This document shows, in pieces, positions 5,442-6,741 of a DNA stretch of 64,000 bases. The translations under genes were made by a program, and so were the position numbers. This stretch comes from Octopus vulgaris (lineage: Eukaryota), in the NCBI GenBank assembly GCA_951406725.2, contig OX597836.1, forward strand, positions 24,180,001 to 24,244,000, read 5' to 3'. Under the pieces are notes generated by a model. That model saw nothing but the letters and a program-made list of their open reading frames with translations. It ran no database searches and was not told the origin of the DNA. The number at the start of each line of letters is the position of its first letter. Position 1 is the stretch's first letter.

Positions 5442-6246
5442 GTCATACTTAACGAATATTATTAGCATGATTCGGTGCAAAACTACTACCAATATAAACT
5501 TTAATGACGTCATTTCAAAATGATTATTTGTAAGTGAATAAAGTGACTCAGAATACCTATTAGCATGTATATAGTGTGAACAATTTTAACATGTTGCTAC
5601 AGTTTTGTTTTTAAATCCTTTTCAGTTCATCTTCGCCATTTTGTTGTGAATATATTTCACTACATACACTGTCGTATATACCAACAGATATTCGACCATC
5701 TTTAAAAGATTAAAGAATATTCGTTGTGTTAAAATGGCCCATTATAAAGTAATTTTGTTTAGTTGTCCTTGCATATCTATTTCAACTGCCTGCCAAGCAG
5801 ATTAACCAGTAATACAGTGGATCAGCTGTCACGGAATCCATGAGCGTGGTAGTAAACGAGGTCCTCGGGTGGAAAGATTTAATGATTTCAAAATAGAGTA
5901 AATTGAGGTTTTTGGTGAGGGGAGGTTTGACAGAAGAATAGAAATAGGGATGAGAAGACGTCCATTAACTCATCCCGTATGATCTCGGTTATTAGCCGGT
6001 TTATATTATTGTAGAATAGACATTTGAATCAACTTGGCATCATTATATTAGACCTATTGGTAACCCATACTTGATAAAAATTCTCAAAGATCCGTTTTGT
6101 AAATGTTTACTGTGAAAATGACTATAACACTTTTCATAATTCTAAATTTTTCCTATTTCAGTTCTATATTTAAGAGATAAGGAATTATGTACATTATTTA
6201 CATTATTTACATTTGAAGGATAATTGTCTTCATCTTGTTTGTTGTT

Positions 6247-6292
6247 AGCACGACGTTTCGGCTGATATACTCTCCAGCCTTCATCAGGTTTC
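6247..6292 (-). ncRNA. Minimal type I hammerhead ribozyme motif (stem I degenerate in this copy)
   Basis: CUGAUGA core, 5-bp stem II GGCUG/CAGCC, GAAA, palindromic ACGU stem III and GUC triplet. Confidence 0.75.
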
Positions 6293-6333
6293 TTGGGGAA
6301 ATTTCGAACCGGGATTCTCATTCTCATTTTTCG

Positions 6334-6480
6334 ATTATTATTATTATTATTATTATTATTATTATTATTATTATTATTATTATTATTATTATTATTATTA
6401 TTATTATTATTATTATTATTATTATTATTATTATTATTATTATTATTATTATTATTATCATCATCATCATCATTATTATT
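6334..6480. repeat. (ATT)n microsatellite
   Basis: Seen directly. Confidence 0.99.
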
Positions 6481-6741
6481 ATGCAGGCTGCAGCCTGAAA
6501 TCGAATTCGAAATCTTGGGCTAGTAGCCCGCGCTTTTAACCACTACGCCATATGCCCGTGGACATATGGCGTAGTGGATAAGATGAGGACAAATATCCTT
6601 CAAATGTAAATAGTGTAGATAATGTTATTCATATTTATTTCCTAATAAAGGGACTCACATACAAACGCGCGCGCACACACATACACATATATATATATAT
6701 ATATATATATATATATATATATATATATATATATATATACA

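Follow-up and report, generated by a model that had tools for sequence, protein, structure and literature searches.

Insertions of Penelope-like elements (PLEs) with two classes of ends, inverted pieces, and duplications have already been described (PMC3846280), and a minimal form of the hammerhead ribozyme has been defined for these elements (PMC4209133). In the Anolis element PAc, reverse transcription is primed inside the RNA at two sites just past the start of the ORF, and the RNA beyond these sites is required (PMC11167929). According to the same source, hammerhead cleavage in the sole PLE tested in vitro required protein and was dispensable for insertion. The Adineta elements Pen2 and Pen3a have pseudo-LTRs (pLTRs) with fixed palindromic 5′ ends and Pol II-like TATA/Inr sequences (PMC3846280). 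PLE clades are told apart by zinc fingers and by the position of the endonuclease (EN) (PMC8557442).

We analyzed a 64-kb stretch of octopus DNA (G000:C23:24180001-24244000; hereafter, the window) from a microsatellite-rich assembly of 2.8 Gb in 227 contigs. A preliminary description had read one feature of the window as a non-autonomous SINE, in which a tRNA-like head is fused to a borrowed Penelope-type tail with a hammerhead. Every part that it listed was present on the minus strand (Table 1), including the perfect A box and the inverted piece in which the head start is fused to the tail; the join lies on a 4-nt AAGA microhomology. The window contained a single copy of this head-(AAT)n-hammerhead-tail unit, the head of which differed from the family head at 9 of 74 positions. 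The two arms paired over 46 nt at 91% and over a further 22 nt at 91%, with a long end on one arm and a short end on the other. The TSD match had a chance frequency of 0.013 among random window pairs and 0.026 among AT-matched pairs. The Penelope-type insertion footprint proposed earlier was recovered, with an inverted arm, a one-sided tail of 30-40 nt, and a probable 11-nt TSD; in the family, pLTRs in partial tandems join these features. The feature is a solo pLTR with an inverted arm, a textbook Penelope/Poseidon footprint, and this copy is a dead, ordinary-looking member of a known element class. Elsewhere in the window, open frames at 175-633 (minus strand) and 10578-11075 (plus strand) resembled Tc1/mariner transposase fragments by eye, and repeated units of 131 bp (3.1 copies, 98%; 5043-5446) and 303 bp (2 copies, 96%; 26823-27429) were observed.

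Table 1. Features of the insertion, in window coordinates
Feature	Position	Strand	Remark
tRNA-derived head of pLTR	6483..6557	-	75 nt; 3′ end scrambled in window copy
A box	6540..6550	-	from sequence
B box	6497..6508	-	two changes relative to family form
(AAT)n tract within pLTR	6334..6482	-	length varies between copies
"Tail", coding start of PLE ORF	6160..6321	-	ATG 6321-6319; 54 codons, no stop
Minimal type I hammerhead	6247..6292	-	stem I 6292-6288/6251-6247, damaged in window copy
Hammerhead core CUGAUGA	6281..6287	-	extra A at 6280
Hammerhead stem II	6279-6275/6264-6260	-	read off the sequence
Hammerhead GAAAC-GUC	6252..6259	-	triplet 6254-6252; predicted cut between 6252/6251
One-sided tail extension, 30-40 nt	6159..6190	-	on minus-strand arm only
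Inverted short arm	6560..6625	+	head 1 to ~24, AAGA microhomology 6580-6583, tail ~105-150; short 3′ end class
Centre of head-to-head palindrome	6554..6563		family micro-hairpin GCCC-AC-GGGC straddles head start; hairpin z -7.5
Probable TSD, 5′ copy	6626..6636	-	11 nt, 9/11 identical to 3′ copy
Probable TSD, 3′ copy	6148..6158	-	partner of 6626..6636

The feature belongs to one real family. A 34-nt hammerhead word and a 20-nt head word had 2,507 and 5,148 exact genomic matches, respectively, and the controls (reversed for the hammerhead word) had 0. The head was followed by the tail at 27 of the 29 best head matches, and the same held for 58 of 70 copies sampled in chromosome order; three of the 70 were duplicates. 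Co-occurrence at a fixed spacing had been put forward as a check; the co-occurrence held, but the spacing was not constant and varied with the length of (AAT)n. With these counts and the fixed ORF-head junction described below, the idea that a tRNA fragment and a PLE end landed by chance inside an (AAT)n tract is ruled out, and we assign it a negligible probability. Family DNA words were also present in sequencing runs under five organism labels, with no RNA run among the matches of this search.

At some head matches, a reverse transcriptase (RT)/putative EN frame lay directly upstream. Among 30 ORF-anchored loci, the end of this ORF met the head at a single fixed junction in 23, and five of the seven loci missing the junction represent one duplicated, truncated copy. 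On the other side, the tail lay directly upstream of the 5′ body of the ORF at one junction in 7 of 28 loci, and the tail-body junction word had 104 exact matches (control, 0). Among 20 extended loci, 11 contained ORF-head-tail, and a pLTR was found at both ends of L155 and L157. The body is 2,342 nt and the unit (pLTR-ORF-pLTR) ~2.6 kb, with copies diverging by a median of 5.6% from the majority sequence (56 segments). The "tail" codes for the first ~54 residues of the ORF, and its reading frame is intact in the family. A natural copy (L163:711-1367) continues from the tail frame into the ORF body, and its peptide matched the N-terminus of the protein P0003 (39%, E 8e-36). The N-terminal part of an 847-aa relative aligned with the peptide, also over the residues that the hammerhead core encodes, and the hammerhead-encoded peptide was retained in a 55%-identical relative. 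Because the ORF junctions are fixed on both sides and the "tail" codes for the ORF start, head-(AAT)n-hammerhead-tail is the pLTR of a PLE. The layout is pLTR-ORF-pLTR, with the ORF starting in the pLTR and running through the hammerhead.

The ORF protein has an RT domain (PF00078, E 1.8e-8) with the motifs DKG, YGLPK, GSPLS, and YVDD in order. Full-length relatives are ~830-850 aa, the closest being 55-68% identical, and one family locus (L281) retained a natural frame of 569 aa. The C-terminal motifs aligned with those of relatives, some of them annotated with PF01541, and Pfam gave no GIY-YIG match for the family's own C-terminal fragment. The linker that joins RT to the putative EN has no extra zinc finger, unlike in Neptune and Nematis, and EN is not N-terminal, unlike in Naiad; the absent finger points to a Penelope/Poseidon EN+ PLE. 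A PDB search returned no match under E 0.01. All family copies seen were broken, with no active source copy among them. The preliminary description had proposed mobilization by PLE enzymes and an autonomous partner sharing the tail: the partner exists as the PLE described here, and the mobilization reading is upheld alongside it. Another PLE ORF (L028:352-1308, minus strand), in which the linker is Cys-rich (making it Neptune-like on the linker criterion) and GIY-YIG matched weakly (E 8e-4), was rejected as the partner; it belongs to a different element and shares no tail.

The family hammerhead consists of a 5-bp stem I, an extra A, a stem II of 5-6 bp, and an ACGU palindrome. Stem I formed three of five pairs in the window copy and all five in the family, as a check on the consensus required. 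Both stems covaried over 12 sequences (10 relatives chosen by core motif, plus a family copy and the copy in the window), being 84.9% paired, a level reached in 0 of 500 shuffles and compared with 21-43% for slid controls. These results support the Penelope-type minimal hammerhead claimed from the window copy. The motif GAAAC-GUC, by contrast, holds for the window copy but not as the family form: the family triplet is GUU, and GUC is private to the window copy, 2 of about 140 copies carrying C. Cleavage is predicted to fall 3′ of the first ATG of the ORF. In RNA viruses, self-cleavage can start cap-independent translation (PMC13725137), an analogy that is loose here because the predicted cut lies 3′ of that ATG.

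The best match of the family head was a tRNA-Arg(TCG) gene of the same genome (49/73, z 8.0) among 38 tRNA sequences compared; the isotype is provisional because this set spans only seven isotypes. The family form retains the two promoter boxes intact, with decayed tRNA stems and no acceptor stem. The B box had been described as degenerate, which is correct for the window copy but not for the family, in which it is complete (GTTCGATTCC). Neither ARAGORN nor Rfam, the latter run at its gathering threshold and at an E-value threshold, gave a tRNA or hammerhead match on the window; the tRNA origin of the head, which we uphold, rests on the alignment to the genome's own tRNA genes. Since the family head can be aligned to that of an abundant resident SINE as well (z 7.5), it may derive from an older SINE rather than directly from a tRNA. 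No tRNA-like stretch was detected 3′ of the ORF in 35 related PLEs from metagenome contigs (~30-48% identical, each with at least 400 nt of downstream sequence), the best z being 1.7 versus 10.5 here. Conservation among copies was 0.944 and 0.948 for the A and B boxes versus 0.955 for their neighbors; the lack of extra conservation in the boxes is expected for dead copies and lends no support. At a separate locus (L246), seven tRNA-Cys-like genes were clustered within 3 kb.

The copy number changed sharply at the start of the head. Exact words at -114, -31, and +30 had 656, 865, and 5,148 matches, and the calibrated numbers of arms were about 2,000, 2,300, and 14,700, respectively, which are lower bounds because near-consensus copies were used for calibration. 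Copy number thus jumps six-fold at the head start. In the 70 position-ordered copies, 41 of the 5′ ends fell within -12..+5 and 16 inside the head; the remainder comprised 5 hairpins over-extended by the aligner and 8 copies that truly continue upstream into UTR/ORF. Duplicates and segmental copies were removed from the tallies of both 5′ and 3′ ends. Many 5′ ends were plain, at 0 to -4, with no hairpin, in an automatic classification that misfiled L228 (which continues into the ORF) and some hairpins. Three tandem junctions (L392, L393, and L406) restarted at the G at -6. RNase P processing was rejected as the cause of this boundary, since an acceptor stem is missing from the head and many ends are located 2-7 nt upstream, and so was stalling of RT at a tRNA fold, which would fall on the 3′ side of the head.

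Tail ends fell into two classes, at about 140-150 and about 182, ~35 nt apart, and an inverted piece was found in 37 of the 70 position-ordered copies. Duplications of at least 11 nt flanked 18 of 72 complete ends, one of them low-complexity, compared with 1 of 72 controls. The bases after the tail end matched body bases 1-5 in 55, 61, 46, 36, and 44 of 72 ends of all classes, consistent with templates that reached into the ORF body; the TATTA match could partly be AT-rich target preference. The head-to-tail join at AAGA recurred at 7 genomic places, and at the 6 places other than the window it was also the short arm of a head-to-head pair. A mini-element of its own was therefore rejected, as 7 places stand against 5,148 head words and the join is always a short arm by inverted copy. 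Two of the tandem junctions occurred at loci with unrelated flanks, L392:1431-1851 (G000:C3:3756487-3759508) and L393 (G000:C3:4755543-4758564, minus), which are 93% alike; in both, one and the same junction leads from body position 234 back to the bases immediately ahead of the head. The junction word was present in only 2 of 416 fetched loci, and the two loci possibly represent a 520-nt unit, either non-autonomous or derived from circular RNA. A comparable junction occurs in L406, at body position 40.

We then compared the short copies that start at the head with those linked to the ORF. Non-CpG divergence was 4.3% for 110 head-start arms and 4.5% for 47 ORF-linked arms (p 0.42). Among 31 variable sites, two had p < 0.05, both of them CpG, and no site was diagnostic. 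The net distance between the two groups was zero (126 arms, permutation p 0.66). Head-start and ORF-linked copies are therefore indistinguishable, and there is no separate SINE lineage: the short copies are solo pLTRs of the PLE. The earlier reading of a non-autonomous SINE is accordingly not supported, as the PLE itself carries the head. An A/B-box head is present, as in a SINE, but no non-autonomous lineage sharing only its 3′ tail with a partner was found. Nor does the repeat resemble a retrozyme, a non-coding tandem with canonical hammerheads: its hammerhead is minimal and lies in coding sequence, and the window holds a single copy. Two other abundant SINE-like repeats, which may be the octopus OK/OR1/OR2, occurred downstream of the tail at L035 and inside the head at L071 (79 and 83 matches in fetched loci). 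The tRNA head of the L035 repeat resembles the PLE head, and no similarity was found between the body/tail of the PLE repeat and these two repeats (z 1.3 and -0.2).

It could still be argued that the short copies propagate as a SINE, with solo copies serving as Pol III templates and using PLE enzymes in trans. Head-bearing arms outnumber ORF ends by ~6:1, solo copies retain both boxes, PLE proteins are able to act in trans (PMC3846280), and the L392/L393 junction stands at unrelated sites, so some short derivatives spread. Yet such a population shows neither subfamily sites nor an age difference, and short copies often keep pre-head and ORF-body bases, of which a solo master would be stripped. 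Across the family, the "tail" keeps an intact reading frame, and the RNA of PAc had to continue into the ORF beyond the sites of priming (PMC11167929). We consider self-propagation improbable.

As for the origin of the boundary, an internal Pol III promoter places the start 8-14 nt before the A box, which is where the boundary falls. No T4 run was present on the sense strand of the majority 2.6-kb unit versus 4.4 expected, and 11 single copies had 0-1 in ORF or UTR. Among the relatives, 12 of 13 had T4 runs in the UTR and none of the 13 was free of T4 in ORF and UTR alike. The depletion was weak, with p 0.027 by codon shuffle, limited to 620 codons because the majority frame breaks at an indel in codon 621, and p 0.22 under a second-order Markov model. 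In the comparison with control ORF stretches, from which 23 of 79 metagenome loci were dropped because their matches were short or split, 4 of 56 were likewise without T4. One metagenome PLE ORF stretch (L336:3001-4653) had no T4 run versus 7 expected, between T-rich flanks. RNA reads of a related organism covered both orientations equally, with no pile of starts or ends, the predicted cut included, in libraries of a type that would miss short uncapped RNA.

Since the A/B boxes lie 8-14 nt downstream of the boundary and no terminator follows, Pol III is the likeliest source of the template, and we hold with moderate confidence that it starts before the head and that internal priming at the pLTR/ORF junction gives the solo pLTRs. 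Under this model, in a copy with pLTR and ORF, Pol III would start ~6-7 nt before the head and, with no T4 run in its way, would extend into the ORF body. The PLE protein would nick AT-rich DNA and prime reverse transcription internally at the pLTR/body junction, at two sites separated by 30-40 nt, in the manner of Anolis PAc. About 300 nt would be copied back to the RNA 5′ end, yielding a SINE-like solo pLTR. Either folding of the cDNA end onto itself at the GCCC/GGGC micro-hairpin or a microhomology jump could then produce the head-to-head arm. Cutting by the hammerhead would require a dimer or the help of protein and would not set the ends of copies. A stronger version, in which the autonomous PLE took over a tRNA-type promoter and is transcribed by Pol III end to end, its uncapped RNA being translated and the SINE-like solos arising as by-products, seems to us unlikely.

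A fixed start is no proof of Pol III because the pLTR start is fixed and palindromic in PLEs that lack a tRNA head as well. The tRNA-like piece might instead be a passenger, the remnant of an old tRNA or SINE in the 3′ UTR of an element transcribed by Pol II, with ends piling up at the micro-hairpin or at a Pol II start. Other PLEs combine such starts with Pol II-type promoters (PMC3846280, PMC8557442), and a Pol III mRNA of 2.6 kb has been doubted on grounds of processivity (PMC10886601); the alignment with the resident SINE head (z 7.5) also fits an old fragment. Against a passenger stand a boundary at the distance from the A box that Pol III predicts and the survival of two complete boxes in a family with decayed tRNA stems. 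Many 5′ ends are plain rather than hairpins, and the pLTR is without a T4 run while most relatives' UTRs have one. We regard the passenger explanation as possible but doubtful, and continue to favor Pol III initiation before the head with internal priming.

What is unusual in this family is a tRNA-Arg-like A/B-box head in the pLTR of an autonomous PLE, the six-fold copy step at the head start, and a weak absence of T4. No published description of a tRNA-type promoter in an autonomous Penelope pLTR was found in the literature, a scope to which Repbase, Dfam, SINEBase, the consensus library of PMC13282606, and Ohshima and Okada 1994 do not belong. In the text and supplement terms covered from the 2026 octopus repeat annotation (PMC13282606), no mention of the family was found. 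PLE transcription and the origin of head-to-head solo repeats are both directly testable with it: ~15,000 head-bearing arms have 5′ ends clustered just before an A/B-box promoter, and the start is predicted to within a few bases. A fold-back account from a sense template is offered for palindromic junctions previously read as needing an antisense template (PMC3846280). Some "SINE" annotation in such genomes is Penelope terminal repeat. If the end-to-end Pol III reading were true, it would provide a route for SINEs and retrozymes to arise from Penelope elements.

Among known systems, the octopus SINEs OK, OR1, and OR2, the latter two called CORE-SINEs (PMC4758252, PMC4824008), share a tRNA-derived head with the PLE repeat. 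Schistosome Sm-alpha (Sm-alpha/Sj-alpha: PMC2770079, PMC6765202) likewise has a tRNA-derived promoter followed by a hammerhead, and metazoan non-LTR retrozymes are proposed to originate from PLE pLTRs (PMC7229834, bioRxiv 10.64898/2026.07.22.740005). Both Sm-alpha/Sj-alpha and retrozymes are described as non-coding, tandem, and equipped with canonical hammerheads, whereas the hammerhead here is minimal and coding and the copies are mostly dispersed or head-to-head. In the TRIMp3 elements Cassandra, Helenus, and Ajax (PMC10886601), a small-RNA-derived Pol III promoter also lies in the terminal repeat, probably by SINE/tRNA insertion; these are short non-autonomous LTR elements whose partners are expected to use Pol II, while here the element is a protein-coding PLE. 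The minimal type I hammerheads of metazoan PLEs (PMC4209133) have, as here, a helix I of 4-5 bp, an extra base between 9 and 10.1, G10.1-C11.1, and a palindromic ACGU at helix III, and are mostly single genomic motifs; set against that account, the predicted hammerhead shows no notable difference. Shared with Anolis PAc (PMC11167929), Adineta Pen2a/Pen3a (PMC3846280), and the layout in PMC8557442 are a single ORF of ~830-850 aa with RT then, putatively here, GIY-YIG, beginning in the pLTR upstream of the predicted hammerhead cut (described for PAc), partial tandems, an inverted 5′ arm, a one-sided tail of 30-40 nt, TSDs of ~9-13 bp, and a palindrome at the pLTR 5′ end. The pLTR promoters of those elements are Pol II-like (TATA/Inr, 5′ intron), whereas the octopus pLTR opens with an A/B-box head of tRNA origin and an (AAT)n tract and is free of T4 runs.
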